From the NCBI GenBank assembly GCA_043800065.1, contig JAZDNG010000029.1, positions 2,837 through 66,836 on the forward strand: a stretch of 64,000 bases of DNA, read 5' to 3'. The position numbers were made by a program, and so were the translations under genes. The stretch is from Candidatus Omnitrophota bacterium. Lineage in GTDB: Bacteria; Omnitrophota; Gorgyraeia; JAHIPI01. Every line of letters begins with the position of its first letter. Positions within the stretch are counted from its first letter, which is position 1. The notes beneath the pieces were generated by a model that saw only the letters and a list, made by a program, of their open reading frames with translations, was not told the DNA's origin and did no database searches. Positions 3,135-29,198 of this stretch are shown here, piece after piece.

Positions 3135-3163
3135 TTGACATCCGCTCCCTCAGGACATACAAT
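3135..3163 (+). promoter_or_regulatory. Sigma70-type promoter for the regulator and pse operon (-35 TTGACA, 17-nt spacer, -10 TACAAT)
   Basis: TTGACA at 3135-3140. A 17-nt spacer follows, then TACAAT at 3158-3163, about 12 nt upstream of the 3175 start region. The 193-bp intergenic region is divergent from the minus-strand FkbM gene. Confidence 0.45.
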
Positions 3164-3174
3164 ATGTTCAACTA

Positions 3175-3528
3175 ATGAACAGATTGGAGATTATGAATAA
3201 CCACGTTGCTTTAAAAGAAGAACAGACGCTTAATCTTATACGCGAGGTAGAAAAAGACCCCGCACTTAACCAAAGAACGCTTTCCCAGAAACTTAACGTG
3301 TCTTTGGGTAAGACAAACTACCTTCTTAATGAACTTGCCAAAAAAGGCGTTATCAAAATAGCCAGTTTCTCTAAAAATCCCAAAAAGGCCAAGAAGATAC
3401 GCTACATTCTTACACAAAAAGGCCTTCAGCAGAAAATAAAACTTACCTGCCAATTTCTCCAGGTTAAGGAGACGGAGTATAAAAAGCTGAAAGATGAATA
3501 TGATGAATATGTTAACGGGAGGGTATGA
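3175..3528 (+). CDS. MarR-family EPS-associated winged-helix transcriptional regulator
   Basis: 117 aa. The segment …LNQRTLSQKLNVSLGKTNYLLNELAKKGVIKI… is a wHTH resembling the small regulators found at the head of exopolysaccharide and nonulosonate loci. Its stop overlaps the pseB start (ATGA). Confidence 0.5.
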   Translation: MNRLEIMNNHVALKEEQTLNLIREVEKDPALNQRTLSQKLNVSLGKTNYLLNELAKKGVIKIASFSKNPKKAKKIRYILTQKGLQQKIKLTCQFLQVKETEYKKLKDEYDEYVNGRV

Positions 3529-25345: not shown

Positions 25346-27103
25346 ATGAGATATCTTTTTGAGTATTTTAGGCACTTCAAGGCATTTGTGGGCCGCAAAG
25401 TCTATTATTTATTTTTTCTGATGCTGATAGCGGGTTTTATAGAAGCGGTCAGCATAACACTTTTTTTGCCTATCCTGCAAAATGGTTTCGGAAGCGACAA
25501 ATTATCGAAAGCGTTGAAGGTTATATTAGATTTCTTCCATATCGGGTTTTCCTTCAGTCTTTTTTTGCTGCTCATTCTCGTGTTTTTTATATTCAGGGCG
25601 GCATTTCTGATTTTTTATGAATATTATTCCGGCAAGGTTACTTCTAGTCTGCTGATCGCCTTAAGGCGCAAACTTGTGGAAGATGTTTTTTCTGCTGATT
25701 ACCTTTATATCATCAAAAAGGAGGTAGGCTATATTAACAATGCGGTTGTCCGCGAAATAGCCTGCATTGTCGAAGCGTTTCAGACCTTTTTGCAGGTATT
25801 GAAATACACGATATTGGCCGCGGTGTATATCGCGCTTTCCATGATATTGAGTTTTAAAATAAGTCTTGTCGTCTTGGTAATCTGTCCCGTTATCATTATT
25901 TGTACGATGAAACTTAACCGGTTGACTAACAAACTTTCTTTGGCTTACAGCGTTTCGTACGGCAAATTTAACTCCATTCTTTTTCAGGCGTTAAGTAAAT
26001 TTAAATACTTGAAGGCGACTTTCTCGAGCCAAAGGATTTCAAAGATTATTGATGCGCAGAATAAAAATTTGGGGGATATAAGGTTTAAGCTGGTGCTTTT
26101 GCAGTCTATCTCAACAAACGCATTTGAACCCATGGTCGTTTTCTTTGTTGCGGGGCTTCTCTTTTATTATGTCGTGGGTTTAGGCAGAAGCGTCAATGAA
26201 ATAATATTTTTGATTTTCCTGTTTTTGCAGGCCGCCAGGGGATTTCTGACCCTCCAGTCATCCTATCGGAGATTTCTAGCCTCAAAAGGGAGCATAGATA
26301 TCTATAAAGAGTTCCAGGGGGAATTGGAAAAGAACAGAGAGTCTCTAAACCTGGAGGGATTCAAGCCGGATTTTAGTAAAGAGATCCTCATCGTGGACGC
26401 CACGGTGATATTCCCAAACGGTAAAAAGGCCCTCGACAATGTCAGTATAACCATTAAACCAAAGTCAGTAGTAGCCTTGGTAGGCCATTCCGGTTCCGGT
26501 AAATCTACAATCGCTAATATGATCACAGGGATATTAAAACCGGCAAGCGGAGAGATCTTATTTGGCGACGTTAGCTACGATAAGATTAACCTAAAAATCT
26601 TGCGCGAGAATGTAGGATATGTCACCCAGGAAGATATAATATTCAACGCAAGCATCAAGGATAATGTTTCCCTGTGGGGCGAGAATATCGACGAGAATAG
26701 ATTGTCCAGGGCTATAGCAATGGCTCACATACGGGGCTTTGTGTCCGATCTTGTCGAAAAAGAAGATGCCTTGCTTGGTGACAACGGCCTGGATGTATCG
26801 GGAGGGCAAAGGCAACGCATAACCATAGCCCGCGAATTATACAGGGATACAAGACTTCTGATATTAGACGAAGCGACAAGCTCCCTCGACAGTAAGTCCG
26901 AAAATCAGATCTACGAAAATCTGAAGGGTTTAAAAGGAGAGAAGACCTTGGTCGTCATTGCTCACCGACTTTCGACGATAAGAAACGCGGATTATATATA
27001 CGTCTTAGATAGCGGCAGGGTTATAGAAGAAGGAACCTACGGAGATCTTTATGAAAAGAAAGGCGAGTTCAAAACGATGATAGAGGAGCAGAAACTTGTC
27101 TAA
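25346..27103 (+). CDS. ABC exporter, fused permease plus ATPase (MsbA/type I exporter-like)
   Basis: Six N-terminal TM helices. Walker A GHSGSGKST, signature LSGGQRQR, Walker B LLILDEATSSLD. Confidence 0.8.
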   Translation: MRYLFEYFRHFKAFVGRKVYYLFFLMLIAGFIEAVSITLFLPILQNGFGSDKLSKALKVILDFFHIGFSFSLFLLLILVFFIFRAAFLIFYEYYSGKVTSSLLIALRRKLVEDVFSADYLYIIKKEVGYINNAVVREIACIVEAFQTFLQVLKYTILAAVYIALSMILSFKISLVVLVICPVIIICTMKLNRLTNKLSLAYSVSYGKFNSILFQALSKFKYLKATFSSQRISKIIDAQNKNLGDIRFKLVLLQSISTNAFEPMVVFFVAGLLFYYVVGLGRSVNEIIFLIFLFLQAARGFLTLQSSYRRFLASKGSIDIYKEFQGELEKNRESLNLEGFKPDFSKEILIVDATVIFPNGKKALDNVSITIKPKSVVALVGHSGSGKSTIANMITGILKPASGEILFGDVSYDKINLKILRENVGYVTQEDIIFNASIKDNVSLWGENIDENRLSRAIAMAHIRGFVSDLVEKEDALLGDNGLDVSGGQRQRITIARELYRDTRLLILDEATSSLDSKSENQIYENLKGLKGEKTLVVIAHRLSTIRNADYIYVLDSGRVIEEGTYGDLYEKKGEFKTMIEEQKLV

Positions 27104-27107
27104 AATT

Positions 27108-29198
27108 ATGAAAGAAGGAATATCAACAATAAGCAGTAAAATCAAAGAGACTGCGGATACTCTGTTTATCTGCCCAACTTGCGCAACAATCCTTACGTAT
27201 GATAACAATGCGTATAGGTGCAGCGGCTGCGGGCAGCAGTTTGACCTGAAGGAAGGCATCCCCGGCTTCACCAAAGACATGCATTACTTTTCGTGGAACA
27301 TACCTAGGGAAAACATGGAATACGCGCTTTCCCATGTACATGACGACGGATGGCAGGAGACCGTGCTGCGCCTTCAAGACGACATGCCCGAAAAAGCACA
27401 GAAGATCTGGAGCAGGATATGCAACCCCCGCAGGTGGCCGTGGATATTTTTATTACCTATCGATAAGGAATCTACCGTGCTTGATATCGGCTGCGGGTGG
27501 GGCAACAACTCTATTGCGCTTGCAAAAAGATGCGGTAAGGTATATTCGATGGACTCGACATTCGCATATTTGCGGTGGCTTAAGGCTTATGCCGAAGAAA
27601 CGAATGTCCATAACATTGTACCGGTGCACGGAGGGGATACCGCGAGGCTTCCTTTTAGAGATAATTCATTCGATTGTGTCGCAGTCAGCGGCGTATTAGA
27701 ATGGATAGGAGCGTCATTTAGCGATGATCCGCAAGTAAGCCAACAGAGATTTTTGAACGAAATATCAAGGATACTTAAAAAAGACGGCTGCGTCTATATC
27801 GGGATTGAAAATAGGATCAATTACAAGTATTTTTTAGGCCGATCGGAAGGCCATATCGGCATGAAATACGGCTCACTTCTTCCGCGGAGCGTAACTCGGG
27901 CGCTGTTGAGGATAGGAAGGCAAAAAGATTTCAAAGTATATACGTATTCAAAGACGGGGTACAGGAATATGCTTAGAAAAGCCTCCTTGAACAGCGCAGC
28001 GTTTCTGGCGCCCATTCCAAGCTACAGCCGCATAAACAGGTTTATACCAGTGTGCGATTGGGCAAAACGTGAAATGTTCGCTCCGCTTGCGTTTGGATGC
28101 GATAGCGCAAAAAATAAGATTCTGATGGATATTTCAAGAGGCTATTTCGTACCAAGTTTTTCCATATTTGCGGCGCACAAGACATTGAAAGAGAGCTCTC
28201 TCAACAAATTATTGAATCACGTGCTTAATCAAGCATTCGGCATTAATAAAATAATGGCAGGTGAGGTAACATCTTTTAAGGTAAAAGACAAAAATACTGC
28301 GCGCTTGATATTAAAGTTTTTCCTAAATAATGGGCTGAATGGGTTTTATTTAAAAGTCGACGCGGCGCCTGACGCAAAGCGGTATCTTCTGAAATCGGCC
28401 TCCATAATAGAGAATCTTAAGAAGGAGCCAAAGCTTTCGGACGCATCAAAATCTCTTCTGCCCGAAGTATTTTGCTACGGCACATATGACGGATACGATT
28501 ATACCTTTGAACGCGAAGAGAGTGGAAGGACAGGAGAAAGCCTTCTTACGGATGTTAGGAAGCGCGACAAGCTGGTAAAAGATGCGGTTTCGCTTATACA
28601 GACAATACATAAAAATACGGCGGTTACGAAAAAGGTAGACGACAAGCTTTTCGACATATATTTCGGAAACCCTATACGATTACTAGGCGAATGGATGCGA
28701 AAAGAGGAAATGGTAGATTACGGGCAGTGGCTGTCTGAAGTCGAAAAATCTTTTAGGAATGATCTCATCAGCGGGCAGCTGACACTCGTATGCCGGCACG
28801 GCGATTATGTGCCGAATAATTGCATTATCGATTCCACCGGTAATCACATAAAGAAGATCCTGGACTGGGAATACGCAGAAATGGAAGGGCTGCCGCTCTT
28901 AGATATCATCAGTTTTCTCAATAGAGCTACGCGTTCTCATATGCGCGATAAATACCCTAATGTCAAATTCCCCGGATATCCGAAAGAATTCTTCTCTACC
29001 GAGATAGCTGACATATGCAAGACGTATCTTGCGGATATAGGAGTACCTCTGAGTCTCTATAAGAATCTGGTATTTATGTGGTGGGCCAAGTACCTTGAAA
29101 TATGCCTTCCGATGTATCGCTACGATGCCGCATGGCGAAAAACAGCGCTTTTTCCTGTGATTGAAAGCTGGAAAAGGATTTTCGAATCCGCAGAATGA
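27108..29198 (+). CDS. Tri-domain protein: Zn-ribbon, class I SAM methyltransferase, and choline/aminoglycoside-kinase-like phosphotransferase
   Basis: CPTCATILTYDNNAYRCSGCGQQF zinc ribbon. VLDIGCGWGNNSIALAK methyltransferase motif I. C-terminal …CRHGDYVPNNCIID…ILDWEYAEM… (HGD…N / DWEY kinase motifs). An alternative TTG start at 27096 is possible. Confidence 0.55.
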   Translation: MKEGISTISSKIKETADTLFICPTCATILTYDNNAYRCSGCGQQFDLKEGIPGFTKDMHYFSWNIPRENMEYALSHVHDDGWQETVLRLQDDMPEKAQKIWSRICNPRRWPWIFLLPIDKESTVLDIGCGWGNNSIALAKRCGKVYSMDSTFAYLRWLKAYAEETNVHNIVPVHGGDTARLPFRDNSFDCVAVSGVLEWIGASFSDDPQVSQQRFLNEISRILKKDGCVYIGIENRINYKYFLGRSEGHIGMKYGSLLPRSVTRALLRIGRQKDFKVYTYSKTGYRNMLRKASLNSAAFLAPIPSYSRINRFIPVCDWAKREMFAPLAFGCDSAKNKILMDISRGYFVPSFSIFAAHKTLKESSLNKLLNHVLNQAFGINKIMAGEVTSFKVKDKNTARLILKFFLNNGLNGFYLKVDAAPDAKRYLLKSASIIENLKKEPKLSDASKSLLPEVFCYGTYDGYDYTFEREESGRTGESLLTDVRKRDKLVKDAVSLIQTIHKNTAVTKKVDDKLFDIYFGNPIRLLGEWMRKEEMVDYGQWLSEVEKSFRNDLISGQLTLVCRHGDYVPNNCIIDSTGNHIKKILDWEYAEMEGLPLLDIISFLNRATRSHMRDKYPNVKFPGYPKEFFSTEIADICKTYLADIGVPLSLYKNLVFMWWAKYLEICLPMYRYDAAWRKTALFPVIESWKRIFESAE

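Follow-up and report, generated by a model that had tools for sequence, protein, structure and literature searches.

Organization of the locus

What does a 26-kb operon-like cluster of 23 same-strand genes in an Omnitrophota genome produce? In the window, i.e. the whole stretch of 64,000 nucleotides analyzed here, the ORF listing places these genes at 3175-29198 (Table 1). NCBI proteins with 100% identity identify the source as the MAG of an uncultured Candidatus Omnitrophota bacterium. A preliminary description of this DNA had counted about 25 genes and predicted a single heavily tailored nonulosonic acid; the count is 23, and the single product gives way to two modules. The locus is a composite of a pseudaminic acid (Pse)-derivative module and an independent Kdo-like cassette. 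The genes at 17645-24137 form a cassette that also stands by itself on hundreds of metagenome contigs, most of which carry no Pse genes, and in further Pse-module relatives a legionaminic-acid (Leg)-like module occupies their position. On balance we think it probable that this is a modular surface-glycan operon making two CMP-activated acidic sugars, with one soluble GT-B transferase for each. The argument draws on observed gene content, family membership, folds, synteny and distribution. Profile searches used the curated cut-offs of the TIGRFAM/NCBIfam and PRK models and Pfam gathering scores.

Table 1. Features of the locus and its divergent neighbours (scores in bits, curated cut-offs in brackets).
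Feature	Position	Strand	Evidence
PMT_2 GT-C glycosyltransferase	193-1530	-	divergent neighbour
TPR protein	1542-2174	-	divergent neighbour
FkbM methyltransferase	2202-2981	-	divergent neighbour
Promoter-like site TTGACA-17-TACAAT	3135-3163	+	ahead of g1; 11/12 matches, consensus match only
g1 MarR-family EPS-associated regulator	3175-3528	+	TIGR04176 94.4 (88), pass; HTH_24
g2 PseB, inverting UDP-GlcNAc 4,6-dehydratase	3525-4517	+	TIGR03589 473 (407.75), full length, pass
g3 PseC aminotransferase	4514-5668	+	TIGR03588 458 (423.5), pass; LegC model only 258
g4 aldo/keto reductase (AKR), accessory	5661-6539	+	PF00248 122
g5 CTP_transf_3 cytidylyltransferase	6530-7261	+	PF02348 106; PseF 29 (206), below; PDB 6oew 'Cytidylyltransferase' 146, full length
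g6 class-III (GSA-aminomutase-like) PLP aminotransferase, accessory	7254-8564	+	PF00202 145; PRK06209 261 (486), below
g7 PseG UDP-sugar hydrolase (residues ~4-262)::ATP-grasp ligase (~335-645), 676 aa	8561-10591	+	PseG 139 (153.55), just under; PRK12767 124, ATPgrasp_Ter, PylC-like_N, ATP-grasp_3
g8 B12-binding radical SAM protein 1	10588-11976	+	PF04055 82, PF02310 39; CPFNCKYC at 187; no NCBIfam equivalog at cut-off
g9 NeuB-family nonulosonate synthase	11960-12994	+	Pfam NeuB 257 and SAF; NeuB 323 (400), PseI 266 (340), both below; PDB 6ncs 206, PseI 8h2c 148
g10 B12-binding radical SAM protein 2	12991-14352	+	PF04055 77, PF02310 54; CPFRCSFC at 194
g11 LmbE/PIG-L family de-N-acetylase	14349-15029	+	PF02585 87
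g12 tandem GNAT, C-terminal domain PseH-like	15026-16006	+	Acetyltransf_3 in 2 stretches; residues 161-312 PseH 88.9 (93.1), just under
g13 GT-B-fold protein, 535 aa	16007-17614	+	confident model; invariant K413-x-H415-P416
g14 D-2-hydroxyacid dehydrogenase (2HADH; PGDH/glyoxylate-reductase-like)	17645-18577	+	2-Hacid_dh_C 180; PGDH 247 (454)
g15 HAD-family phosphatase	18567-19253	+	HAD_2 81
g16 HpcH/HpaI class-II pyruvate aldolase	19255-20016	+	PF03328 134; HpaI 197 (369), below
g17 KdsB-type CMP-ulosonate synthetase	20013-20777	+	TIGR00466 162.7 (155.2), PRK13368 295 (255), PRK05450.1-5 275 (193), all pass
g18 GFO/IDH/MocA oxidoreductase	20807-21850	+	Pfam
g19 B12-binding radical SAM protein 3	21935-23515	+	PF04055 80.5, PF02310 65; CPFRCTYC at 227
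g20 GmhA-like SIS sugar-phosphate isomerase	23490-24137	+	SIS_2 61; CBS domains absent; gmhA 98 (209), below
g21 GT-B-fold protein, 394 aa	24147-25331	+	confident model; K-P-H-P, invariant H287(-P288)
g22 fused TMD-NBD ABC exporter (MsbA/PglK/HepA-like)	25346-27103	+	ABC_membrane, ABC_tran; HepA 280, MsbA 269, PglK 227, all below cut-off
g23 class-I SAM methyltransferase (~120-250)::APH-type kinase (~455-611)	27096-29198	+	Methyltransf_11 66; APH 28 (23.2)

Neighbouring genes overlap at 16 of the 22 junctions, by 4-26 nt and mostly by 4-17 nt, and gaps reach at most 84 nt; no terminator-like hairpin was found at intergenic plus-strand positions inside the locus. The promoter-like site is the best plus-strand sigma-70-like site within 2000-21900 and coincides with the start of the locus as first described. 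This tight spacing suggests that all 23 genes are read as one transcript. The regulator gene g1 also comes first in the related loci L002, L003 and L007. By their adjacency the divergent genes are possibly linked to the locus in function, and the 3' side is occupied by housekeeping genes (PNPase, dUTPase, FtsK, RodZ, RimO, UvrA). Among the locus proteins, a clear transmembrane segment is present only in g22. Genes for an initiating phosphoglycosyltransferase, Wzx/Wzy, WaaL or Kps-type functions were not found within the locus, nor was any acceptor candidate (flagellin, pilin or S-layer protein) anywhere in the window.

The Pse module

The Pse module is syntenic in five Omnitrophota-type loci (L001-L005) and partly in L006 and L008 (CPR); the loci L007 and L009, from Desulfobacteraceae or Deltaproteobacteria MAGs, have a minimal version. 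Neither this synteny nor the profile results for PseB and PseC refute the preliminary description. The complete Pse core described earlier is only in part secured by profiles: PseB and PseC pass their models, and PseG and PseH fall just under their cut-offs. For the PseI and PseF-like genes the Pse-specific models fail and synteny backs the roles. A homologue of g5 is found in every related Pse module with the relevant flank available (L001-L007, L009), and in the minimal loci it is the sole cytidylyltransferase homologue detected; this context, rather than the PseF model, points to g5 as the CMP-Pse synthetase. Similarly, the g9 type is the Pse-module synthase in L001 and L003-L005, and where a second NeuB paralogue is present (L003-L005) it is part of the Leg-like module; this supports a PseI role for g9 by synteny and not by a Pse-specific profile. 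As the PseF, PseI, PseG and PseH models all remain short of their cut-offs, the product may instead be a different 5,7-diamino nonulosonate isomer. We keep a Pse derivative as the working identity of the product.

The PseG::ATP-grasp fusion, the LmbE-type enzyme, the GSA-type aminotransferase and the aldo/keto reductase reported in the preliminary description were all recovered by profiles. Among 85 relatives of the PseG half, about 75 are PseG::GNAT proteins some 490 aa long, and an ATP-grasp partner was found in only four proteins (g7 and three others). This distribution suggests a domain swap in which the ATP-grasp, as a carboxylate-amine ligase, would stand in for the usual GNAT (PseH) partner. 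In L002, the nearest relative over the full length of the locus, the partner is a Formyl_trans_C_2 domain and the counterpart of g12 is two separate GNAT genes; L003 and L004 carry the PseG and ATP-grasp halves as split genes. Both g4, at the same position, and g11 are kept in L001-L006, and tblastn detected no g4 homologue in L007 or L009, the minimal Desulfobacteraceae loci. PDB matches of g6 are GSA aminomutases and aminoglycoside C-6' aminotransferases.

We propose that module 1 (g2-g12) would convert UDP-GlcNAc by PseB and PseC, followed by N-acylation, PseG hydrolysis, NeuB-type condensation with PEP and CMP activation by g5. The LmbE enzyme and the tandem GNAT would take off one N-acetyl group and then replace it, giving Pse in which one or more N-acyl groups are not acetyl. 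Strain-specific tailoring may come from the AKR, the class-III aminotransferase and the radical SAM proteins g8 and g10.

The Kdo-like cassette

The second CMP-ulosonate branch is indeed present, with a KdsB-type g17 that passes TIGR00466 and PRK13368. KdsB, 2HADH, HpcH and SIS recur together in 26-34 of the 38 long cassette loci (g17 and g14 in 34 each, g16 in 29, g20 in 26). The most conserved cassette gene is g18, for which at least 581 metagenome relatives were found; the top 80 are 63-75% identical to it, and plasmid genes of Leisingera, Paenibacillus and Sinorhizobium fredii 41-44%. The cassette is found in part on Sinorhizobium and Leisingera plasmids; in S. fredii SMH12 the megaplasmid carries the 2HADH-GFO-SIS trio beside a CTP_transf_3 gene and two Capsule_synth genes of KpsC/S type. 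The phosphatase g15 is poorly kept (1/38), and other phosphatase types (IMPase) replace it in L092 and L093.

Module 2 (g14-g20) would make a Kdo-like 2-ulosonic acid without KdsA. The GmhA-like g20 would supply an aldose phosphate, g16 would form the C-C bond, g15 would remove the phosphate and g17 would make the CMP-sugar, with g19 as an optional tailoring enzyme. Between the window and L002, HpcH and KdsB share 33-42% identity and GFO, SIS and 2HADH 73-84% (2HADH 84%), and the Leisingera variant lacks HpcH and KdsB; the aldolase step may therefore not be the core reaction of the cassette. In another reading, C1 and C2 would be oxidised by the GFO enzyme and the 2-hydroxyacid dehydrogenase. 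Since g17 scores above the cut-off of the true KdsB equivalog, module 2 might also merely supply or modify ordinary Kdo. We retain a Kdo-like acid as its proposed product.

Radical SAM proteins

The three class-B radical SAM proteins announced earlier all pass the PF04055 and PF02310 gathering scores, with one CxxxCxxC motif each. They are the least conserved genes of the locus. Orthologues of g10 separate the NeuB and LmbE genes in two settings: L004/L005, at 64% identity, and L001, at 53-77%, where the gene is split into three ORFs. Homologues of g19 occur in seven of the 38 cassette loci at 22-38% identity, in L043 between HpcH and KdsB, and by these comparisons g19 is a recurrent accessory of the cassette. 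No counterpart of g8 was assigned in L001-L091. Since g10 recurs with NeuB and g19 with the cassette, g8 stands alone and L002 has none of the three, these sequence comparisons indicate that the three do not function as one group. Methylation, phosphorylation and C-methylation of the putative sugar are plausible, and the N-acyl exchange and C-methylation chemistry is a prediction. Sugar-acting class-B-like radical SAM enzymes can also be dehydratases, and the best PDB sequence match of g19 is AprD4 (59 bits).

Transfer, export and comparison with known systems

The two HP-motif transferases of the preliminary description are present as candidates, with confident GT-B models and a conserved K-x-H-P common to g13 and g21. 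Their structural neighbours include the CDP-/CMP-donor enzymes TarL, TagF, Bcs3, KpsC and GT80. Homologues of g13 are always within Pse clusters; g13 is a candidate CMP-Pse-dependent transferase and g21 a candidate second transferase. Pfam bears out the ABC exporter and the methyltransferase::kinase. In L003 a 57% identical g22 gene lies immediately 3' of the g13 homologue. No counterpart of g23 was found in L001-L011, and its single match, in L024, is weak (25% identity). In the proposed model, where every substrate, the step order and the acceptor are predicted, g13 and g21 would transfer both sugars in the cytoplasm onto an acceptor made elsewhere, g22 would flip or export the lipid-linked product, and g23 would methylate and/or phosphorylate the resulting glycan, possibly of EPS/LPS/capsule type.

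This kind of locus is already known; uncharacterised parts of it are several tailoring enzymes and the two candidate transferases. Our literature search turned up no paper that connects radical SAM enzymes with nonulosonate pathways, in agreement with the earlier remark that nonulosonates tailored by B12-dependent radical SAM enzymes are not characterised. Other proposed steps have precedents. In the NulO cluster of Ca. Kuenenia, a deacetylase and a formyltransferase lead to free-amine and N-formyl CMP-NulOs (preprint 10.64898/2026.04.20.719630), and this deacetylase step is a precedent for the tailoring proposed here. A second precedent is the ATP-grasp protein encoded in a Shewanella gene cluster for flagellin modification; the same paper discusses the glycan of this flagellin in pseudaminic acid terms (PMC3765264).

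Extent and architecture of the locus

The glycan locus that the preliminary description had proposed is real and sharply bounded, by ORFs on a single strand, a promoter-like site at its head and housekeeping genes downstream. The ORF listing counts 23 genes (g1 to g23), every one on the + strand, where about 25 had been announced. Sixteen of the 22 junctions between them are overlaps of 4–26 nt, and the remaining ones are gaps of 0–30 nt except for a longer one between g18 and g19. By consensus match, the best sigma-70-like site on the + strand lies just 5' of g1, the gene of a MarR-family EPS-associated regulator (94 bits, above the cut-off of 88). 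No + strand terminator-like hairpin was found between the locus genes in a hairpin scan. We infer that all the genes of the locus are co-transcribed. The housekeeping flank encodes PNPase, dUTPase, FtsK, RodZ, RimO and UvrA, then TolQ/R, DnaG, RpoD and SecDF. The G+C content is 0.355–0.453 in the locus versus 0.44–0.49 in this flank, which fits horizontal acquisition or a mosaic assembly of glycan modules. The PMT_2, TPR and FkbM-family neighbours on the opposite strand could supply periplasmic transfer and methylation for the same glycan. The coordinates are collected in the table.

Coordinates of the locus, of other features of the window and of features in related loci (window positions unless another sequence is named)
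Feature	Position	Strand	Remark
PMT_2 (GT-C, ArnT/PMT-like) glycosyltransferase, TPR protein, FkbM-family methyltransferase	193–2981	-	Divergent, directly upstream of the locus
Sigma-70-like site, TTGACA-17-TACAAT	3135–3163	+	
Glycan locus, g1–g23	3175–29198	+	
Part of the locus up to g13	3175–17614	+	
Gap between g13 and g14	17614/17645		30 nt; first real intergenic gap of the locus
Part of the locus from g14	17645–29198	+	
Gap between g18 and g19	21850/21935		84 nt
G+C minimum (g21/g22)	24001–26000		0.355, versus 0.47–0.49 at 30001–40000 downstream
822-aa protein with about eight YbgF/BamD-type TPR repeats	39898–44163		Adjoins TolQ/TolR-like genes; unrelated to the locus
Memo::AMMECR1 fusion	46071–47678		Unrelated to the locus
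Fic-domain protein	61124–62233		Unrelated to the locus
Small RVT_3/RNase H-like protein	63252–63692		Unrelated to the locus; window end
PseG::Formyl_trans_C_2 gene of L002 (Logan SRR22388020)	5574–7271		
Split g10-type gene of L001 (Logan SRR22388352)	7937–9238		
Cassette locus L014 (Ga0209212_1001544)	2321–17307		
Cassette locus L093 (Sinorhizobium fredii SMH12 psfSMH12a, NZ_CP035038.1)	1533555–1558388		

The Pse module

The genes g2–g12 form a predicted pseudaminic acid (Pse) module, Pse being an L-glycero-L-manno 5,7-diamino-3,5,7,9-tetradeoxy-nonulosonate. Its PseB (inverting UDP-GlcNAc 4,6-dehydratase; TIGR03589, 473 bits, cut-off 407.75) and PseC (UDP-4-amino-4,6-dideoxy-L-AltNAc aminotransferase; TIGR03588, 458 bits, cut-off 423.5) pass their models. 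Two further models fall just under the cut-off: PseG (TIGR03590, 139 bits, cut-off 153.55) on the N-terminal half of the 676-aa g7, and PseH (TIGR03585, 88.9 bits, cut-off 93.1) on the C-terminal GNAT of the tandem-GNAT protein g12. Relatives of the PseG half at 44–50% identity are named as this UDP-sugar hydrolase by JGI or NCBI. The synthase g9 belongs to the NeuB family (PF03102, 257 bits) and reaches neither of the specific models, PseI (TIGR03586, 266 bits, cut-off 340) and NeuB (323 bits, cut-off 400). The g5 protein scores 29 bits with the PseF model TIGR03584 (cut-off 206) and matches Pfam CTP_transf_3 alone. Its best solved relative is 6oew, a full-length 'cytidylyltransferase', and KdsB structures match its N-terminal half only. 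Of the complete Pse core claimed earlier, PseB and PseC are confirmed, PseG and PseH score just short of their cut-offs, and the PseI and PseF models are not reached. Profile searches identify g4 as an AKR and g11 as an LmbE/PIG-L protein. The remaining g6 is a GSA-aminomutase-like class-III aminotransferase, whose PDB relatives include aminoglycoside C-6' aminotransferases.

NCBI has proteins 100% identical to g7, g13 and g21 from a Candidatus Omnitrophota MAG. Related loci were compared through the neighbourhoods of homologues and a tblastn synteny map. A scan of genome contigs with g13, the gene that follows the module, gave no relative when g13 was used alone and seven loci with the alignment of its family. 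The conserved order is MarR, PseB, PseC, AKR, g5-like cytidylyltransferase, (class-III aminotransferase), PseG with a fused or split ATP-grasp, NeuB, (variable genes), LmbE, one or more GNATs and a g13 homologue. This cassette is present on the Omnitrophota-type contigs L001–L005 and partly in CPR MAGs of Uhrbacteria (L006) and Parcubacteria (L008). A minimal version, with PseC, PseB, g13-like, g5-like, PseG, GNAT and NeuB genes, was found in two Desulfobacteraceae or Deltaproteobacteria MAGs (L007, L009). No cytidylyltransferase homologue other than the g5-like gene was detected there, and the g13-like gene is the sole gene outside the six canonical Pse functions. From this content we infer that g5 has the role of PseF, that g9, on synteny, has that of PseI, and that g13 is tied to the use of Pse. 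The AKR and the class-III aminotransferase accompany the cassette in loci from Omnitrophota and CPR, and no homologue of either was detected by tblastn in the minimal Desulfobacteraceae loci. On L003 (ENA ERZ27247683 k141_1845763) and L004/L005 (Omnitrophota bin.182, JABMRJ010000030.1), the Pse module is followed by a legionaminic acid (Leg)-like module with a dehydratase, a DegT aminotransferase, formyl/carbamoyl-transferase domains, a second NeuB, a NeuC-type Epimerase_2 and a cytidylyltransferase. This module takes the place of the window's Kdo-like cassette, and with both modules these loci would encode two different nonulosonates.

Partner domains of PseG

About 75 of 85 relatives of g7 are PseG::GNAT fusions of ~490 aa, which join PseG to a PseH-type acetyltransferase. 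An ATP-grasp domain takes the place of the GNAT in only four of the 85. In L002, PseG is joined to neither of these two but to a Formyl_trans_C_2 domain. Two further genes, one for a non-B12 radical SAM/SPASM protein and one for a Methyltransf_24 protein, are found at the end of L002. Exchange of N-acylation chemistry seems to concentrate on the C-terminal partner of PseG: because GNAT, ATP-grasp and Formyl_trans_C_2 domains all occur there, this partner is probably an interchangeable N-acylating enzyme. Such interchangeability suggests that the ATP-grasp of g7 joins a carboxylic acid to an amine of a Pse precursor. A PDB sequence search with g7 returned generic ATP-grasp matches only. The predicted enzyme would couple a free carboxylic acid to one of the amino groups, replacing acetyl, and LmbE together with the tandem GNAT would permit a second N-acetyl group to be taken off and exchanged. 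Both kinds of step have precedents. The Leg cluster of Ca. Kuenenia has an embedded deacetylase and formyltransferase, which have been linked to free-amine and formylated CMP-nonulosonates, and these changes of the amine arise at the nucleotide-sugar level (preprint 10.64898/2026.04.20.719630). In Shewanella, the ATP-grasp protein SO_3265 sits in a flagellin-modification cluster (PMC3765264).

B12-type radical SAM proteins

The g8, g10 and g19 proteins each have one CxxxCxxC motif and score 77–82 bits with PF04055. An N-terminal B12-binding-type domain is predicted in all three by PF02310 (38.6, 53.6 and 65.4 bits, respectively; cut-off 32.1). AprD4-like members of the class-B-type radical SAM proteins do not bind cobalamin. 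Mutual identity is 24–26%, and the best scores against characterised radical SAM equivalogs (methylase, cyclase, HpnJ, AprD4 etc.) are 113–146 bits versus cut-offs of 251–750. The position between NeuB and LmbE is taken by a g10 orthologue in L004/L005 (64% identity) and likewise in L001, the locus with the closest relative of g7. The L001 gene is split into ORFs of 82, 230 and 79 aa, as either a pseudogene or an assembly frameshift, and an AsnB-type amidotransferase gene comes after it. Homologues of g19 are present in seven of the 38 long loci of the second cassette, at 22–38% identity, and in L043 the homologue sits between the aldolase and KdsB. A counterpart of g8 was found in none of the fetched loci. 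L002, which has the most genes in common with the window and covers both modules, lacks all three B12-type enzymes. The three enzymes listed in the preliminary description are all real, but their recurrence is scattered, g10 going with NeuB, g19 with the Kdo-like cassette and g8 being unique. They are not one set.

The PDB sequence relatives of these proteins are 9ccb (unnamed), AprD4, TokK, OxsB, CysS and TsrM-like proteins, and the best match of g19 is AprD4, a diol dehydratase (PDB 6fd2). Since the relatives are mixed and g19 is nearest a diol dehydratase, C-methylation is only one option. Judged from the sequences, C-methylation, dehydration, epimerisation or rearrangement would be equally possible. 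A bolder proposal, which we regard as rather improbable, is that g10 and g8 add a methyl group to an unactivated carbon in the backbone of Pse or in a precursor, leading to C10 ulosonic acids such as those of Magnetospirillum gryphiswaldense, and that g19 C-modifies the Kdo-like sugar of the second cassette, which is undescribed though widespread among environmental bacteria. A chain of ten carbons would result, for example, if the C9 methyl were methylated. In M. gryphiswaldense, 'higher-carbon' (C10) ulosonic acids in CMP-activated form were detected and left unexplained (preprint 10.64898/2026.04.20.719630). If this proposal were true, a radical SAM enzyme encoded beside NeuB would be the missing biosynthetic route to them.

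The GT-B proteins g13 and g21

Neither g13 (535 aa) nor g21 (394 aa) matches Pfam or NCBIfam even at E ≤ 0.01, and some homologues carry the precomputed PF27859 alone. AlphaFold2 predicts a GT-B two-Rossmann fold for both, with a pLDDT of 90.3 for g13 (39-sequence alignment) and 92.6 for g21 (18-sequence alignment). K413, H415 and P416, forming a K-x-H-P motif, are invariant in the 39 sequences of the g13 family. The invariant residues of the g21 family (18 sequences) include P260 and H287, with P288 conserved to at least 90%. Profile-profile comparison aligns 'YKAHPDR' of g13 with 'FKPHPVTD' of g21, weakly (probability 48%, E 1.8e-4), and Foldseek gave only weak GT-B matches in the PDB. The two candidate 'HP-motif' transferases proposed earlier hold up, with GT-B models and a conserved His-Pro in the nucleotide-binding half. 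From these models, g13 and g21 are read as putative transferases using CMP-sugar donors; alternatively, g21 may be epimerase-like.

The g13 family is large. A profile search returned 1831 representatives (clusters at 50% identity) at E ≤ 1e-3, of which 622 also pass E ≤ 1e-30; almost all of them are full length. A word-indexed search gave 42 matches, far under this total. Members at E ≤ 1e-30 are nearly all ~520–560 aa long; a single 1079-aa member (P0183) has two matched stretches. Ten members sampled for their names were called 'hypothetical protein' or had none. Genes of the g21 and g13 families share contigs, including L003 with its Leg-like second module, and in two loci (L040, L041) the second cassette is flanked by diverged members of both families.

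The second, putatively Kdo-like cassette

The second module (g14–g20), an independent and widespread cassette, encodes a PGDH-like 2-hydroxyacid dehydrogenase (2HADH, g14), an HAD protein (g15), an HpcH/HpaI aldolase (g16), a KdsB (g17), a GFO/IDH/MocA protein (g18), the radical SAM protein g19 and an isomerase (g20). The g17 protein passes both TIGR00466 (162.7 bits, cut-off 155.2) and PRK13368 (295 bits, cut-off 255). The 215-aa g20 is a GmhA-like SIS_2 protein without CBS domains, and not a KdsD (SIS plus CBS). No match to the KdsA or DAHP-synthase families was found in any locus or window ORF, and the HpcH class-II aldolase is there instead.

A metagenome scan with g18 gave at least 581 relatives, the best 80 being at 63–75% identity. 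Loci of 8 kb or longer number 38: of these, 34 have a KdsB-like gene, 34 a 2HADH gene, 29 an HpcH aldolase and 26 a SIS isomerase, and Pse genes are rare (g2 and g9 in 2/38 each). The usual order is HpcH, (methyltransferases), KdsB, GFO, SIS and 2HADH. Between the window and L002, GFO, SIS and 2HADH are 73–84% identical and HpcH and KdsB 33–42%; the first three are the conserved core of the cassette. In L014, the cassette is accompanied by Fe-ADH and DegT-type genes, several methyltransferases, an SDR, a 3-dehydroquinate-synthase-like gene and an RmlD-like reductase. The Fe-ADH and DegT pair is reminiscent of KdnB/KdnA, the makers of 8-amino-Kdo in Shewanella. A plasmid of Leisingera aquaemixtae (NZ_CP081063.1) has the order GFO, methyltransferase, SIS, IMPase, NTP transferase and PGDH, with no HpcH or KdsB. 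On the S. fredii SMH12 megaplasmid, 2HADH, GFO and SIS, in this order, lie next to two Capsule_synth genes of the KpsC/S type, together with GT1, IMPase and CTP_transf_3 genes; the locus is of the capsule type. S. fredii and Leisingera are culturable entry points to the product of the cassette. No K-antigen structure was found in the literature on S. fredii SMH12.

A paper describing the HpcH/KdsB/GFO/SIS/2HADH cassette was not found in the literature. A cyanophage paper mentioning kdsB was set aside, as it concerns an ordinary KdsA/KdsB pair and not this cassette. The gene content suggests that a Kdo-like 2-ulosonic acid would be made without KdsA and then activated by a true KdsB-type enzyme. 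In an aldolase route, g16 would condense pyruvate (or hydroxypyruvate from 2HADH and HAD) with a SIS-derived aldose phosphate. In an alternative oxidation route, GFO and 2HADH would oxidise C1, then C2, of an aldose phosphate.

Export, acceptor and overall interpretation

The sole membrane-integral protein of the locus is g22, an MsbA/PglK/HepA-like ABC exporter. Exporters of this type are flippases of lipids or lipid-linked glycans. In L003, a gene 57% identical to g22 comes directly after the g13 homologue, so the exporter would be tied to the Pse side too. The last gene, g23, encodes a Methyltransf_11::APH fusion in which the APH match is weak (28 bits). Its PDB sequence search gave generic methyltransferase matches only, and no counterpart exists among the relatives of the Pse module. 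Genes for an initiating phosphoglycosyltransferase, Wzx/Wzy, WaaL, Kps proteins or Maf were not found in the locus, nor a flagellin or pilin gene in the window; a profile search of the larger ORFs of the window likewise gave no Maf/FlmG transferase domain and no flagellin/flagellar neighbourhood. The acceptor is therefore probably made elsewhere. The EPS-type regulator, the flippase-type exporter and the GT-C neighbour favour a lipid-linked surface glycan over protein glycosylation.

Building on the family memberships, folds, synteny and distribution observed here, we consider it probable that the locus is one modular surface-glycan operon that supplies two CMP-ulosonates and encodes a pair of soluble GT-B transferases, a modifying enzyme and a flippase/exporter. 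One CMP-ulosonate would be a Pse with exchanged N-acyl groups and further tailoring, the other a Kdo-like acid; these substrates, like the order of the steps and the acceptor, are our proposal.

The strongest contender, in our view an unlikely one, is that two functionally unrelated operons abut. The part up to g13 would make a Pse derivative and transfer it for one glycoconjugate, and the part from g14, self-contained with a transferase, an exporter and a modifier of its own, would provide Kdo or a Kdo-like sugar for the LPS core or a separate capsule. Such independence would account for the cassette occurring without Pse genes in most of the 38 long metagenome loci, and in a capsule context in cultured Alphaproteobacteria. 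The score of g17 above the KdsB equivalog cut-off, the first real gap falling exactly at the module boundary and the Leg-like module at the post-g13 position in L003 and L004 also speak for it. However, this gap is merely 30 nt long and holds no terminator-like hairpin, and the order of Pse module then cassette is found again in L002. The sharing of contigs by the g21 and g13 families, even with a Leg-like second module, and the ABC exporter straight after the g13 homologue in L003 also argue against this reading.

A protein O-glycosylation island of the flagellin/pilin type, as in Campylobacter, Helicobacter, Aeromonas and Shewanella, would put the Pse derivative on a surface protein in the cytoplasm. 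Pse is best known on flagellin, such islands have tailoring genes including ATP-grasp (PMC3765264), and g13 and g21 are soluble, as cytoplasmic protein glycosyltransferases should be. We nevertheless hold this reading to be very improbable. Neither Maf/PF01973 or an FlmG-type transferase nor any flagellin, pilin or flagellar gene was found in the 64-kb window, and a flagellin glycosylation island was rejected on the absence of Maf and flagellin genes. Moreover, an EPS-associated MarR regulator heads the locus, a lipid-flippase-type ABC exporter lies inside it, a GT-C (PMT_2) enzyme adjoins it and the related cassette of S. fredii is in a capsule locus. Hardly credible, finally, is a cluster for a secreted aminoglycoside-like or nucleoside-sugar small molecule, with the APH-type kinase and ABC exporter for self-resistance and export: the C-6' aminotransferase matches of the class-III aminotransferase, the AprD4 match of g19, the class-B type of GenK-like methylases, the LmbE-family deacetylase, GFO oxidoreductase, APH domain and exporter, and the DHQ-synthase-like gene near the cassette in L014 would suit it, but two CMP-ulosonate synthetases, PseB, PseC, PseG and NeuB define a nucleotide-sugar supply for glycans, neither a sugar-phosphate cyclase nor an NRPS/PKS or any obvious scaffold gene occurs in the window, the weakly matching APH domain is joined to a methyltransferase, and the regulator is EPS-associated.

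Significance

Nonulosonic acids cap bacterial surface glycans and govern host, phage and predator recognition. Their environmental diversity, as seen by mass spectrometry, exceeds the known genes and includes free-amine, formylated and C10 species (preprint 10.64898/2026.04.20.719630). The locus brings candidate genes for N-acyl exchange (the PseG-fused ATP-grasp, LmbE and the tandem GNAT) and for radical, possibly C-methylating, tailoring. With at least 622 clusters at 50% identity, the g13 family may be a new pseudaminyltransferase family, and the widespread KdsB-linked cassette may provide Kdo-like sugars independently of KdsA. A locus for nonulosonate and Kdo-type glycan biosynthesis is a well-known kind of system, and clusters for multiple nonulosonic acids exist in Leptospira (PMC3438082) and in the relatives L003 and L004. 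As far as the searchable literature shows, four elements are new or undescribed: the presence of B12-type radical SAM genes in pathways for nonulosonates and Kdo-like sugars, the fusion of PseG to an ATP-grasp, the large GT-B family of g13 with its link to Pse clusters, and the KdsB-linked aldolase/GFO/SIS/2HADH cassette. Omnitrophota are presented in the title and abstract of PMC10066038 as ultra-small, host-dependent or predatory bacteria, with no mention there of such glycans. Their cell-surface chemistry is uncharacterised, and the locus matters for its host too.

Comparison with known systems

The second module shares a KdsB equivalog, a SIS isomerase and a phosphatase with the CMP-Kdo pathway KdsD-KdsA-KdsC-KdsB. 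It differs in having no KdsA, with a class-II HpcH aldolase and two dehydrogenases in place, and a GmhA-like isomerase without CBS domains. Group-2 and rhizobial K-antigen capsule loci are approached through S. fredii SMH12, where 2HADH-GFO-SIS stands beside KpsC/S-type Capsule_synth genes, whereas the window has neither a KpsMT-type ABC-2 transporter nor a Capsule_synth gene. The TagF/TarL teichoic-acid polymerases and the GT-B sialyl- and Kdo-transferases (GT80, KpsC) are among the best structural neighbours of g13 and g21, and are like them in the predicted GT-B fold and in the conserved K-x-H-P that opens the C-terminal Rossmann half. By sequence, however, g13 and g21 belong to none of the HP-motif families (Glyphos_transf, Capsule_synth, GT families).

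GenK-type C-methylases are cobalamin-type radical SAM enzymes of aminoglycoside pathways. Together with AprD4, they resemble g8, g10 and g19 in the N-terminal B12-binding-type domain and the CxxxCxxC core. The aminoglycoside-pathway enzymes act on sugars, and AprD4, TokK, OxsB and CysS are detectable PDB relatives of the three proteins. Identity is low, in contrast, and the context here is a nucleotide-ulosonate pathway, for which no described example of a radical SAM enzyme was found in the literature. The Leg cluster of Ca. Kuenenia stuttgartiensis (SugarBase preprint, 10.64898/2026.04.20.719630) also holds a de-N-acetylase within a nonulosonate cluster, and formyltransferase domains are present in L002 and L004 too. 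That cluster is Leg-type and ours Pse-type; in the window, an ATP-grasp and a tandem GNAT stand in for the formyltransferase, and no radical SAM is reported in that cluster ('radical' has 0 occurrences in the preprint).

Compared with the canonical pathway PseB-PseC-PseH-PseG-PseI-PseF of Helicobacter pylori and Campylobacter jejuni, PseG is here joined to an ATP-grasp that would replace or supplement the GNAT, and genes for LmbE, an AKR, a class-III aminotransferase and two B12 radical SAM proteins are inserted. The synthase and cytidylyltransferase differ from the PseI and PseF sequence types, and the locus lacks a Maf transferase or a flagellin context. Nevertheless, PseB and PseC equivalogs, a PseG-like hydrolase, a PseH-like GNAT, a NeuB-family synthase and a CTP_transf_3 protein share one operon, and the logic from UDP-GlcNAc to a CMP-nonulosonate would be the same.
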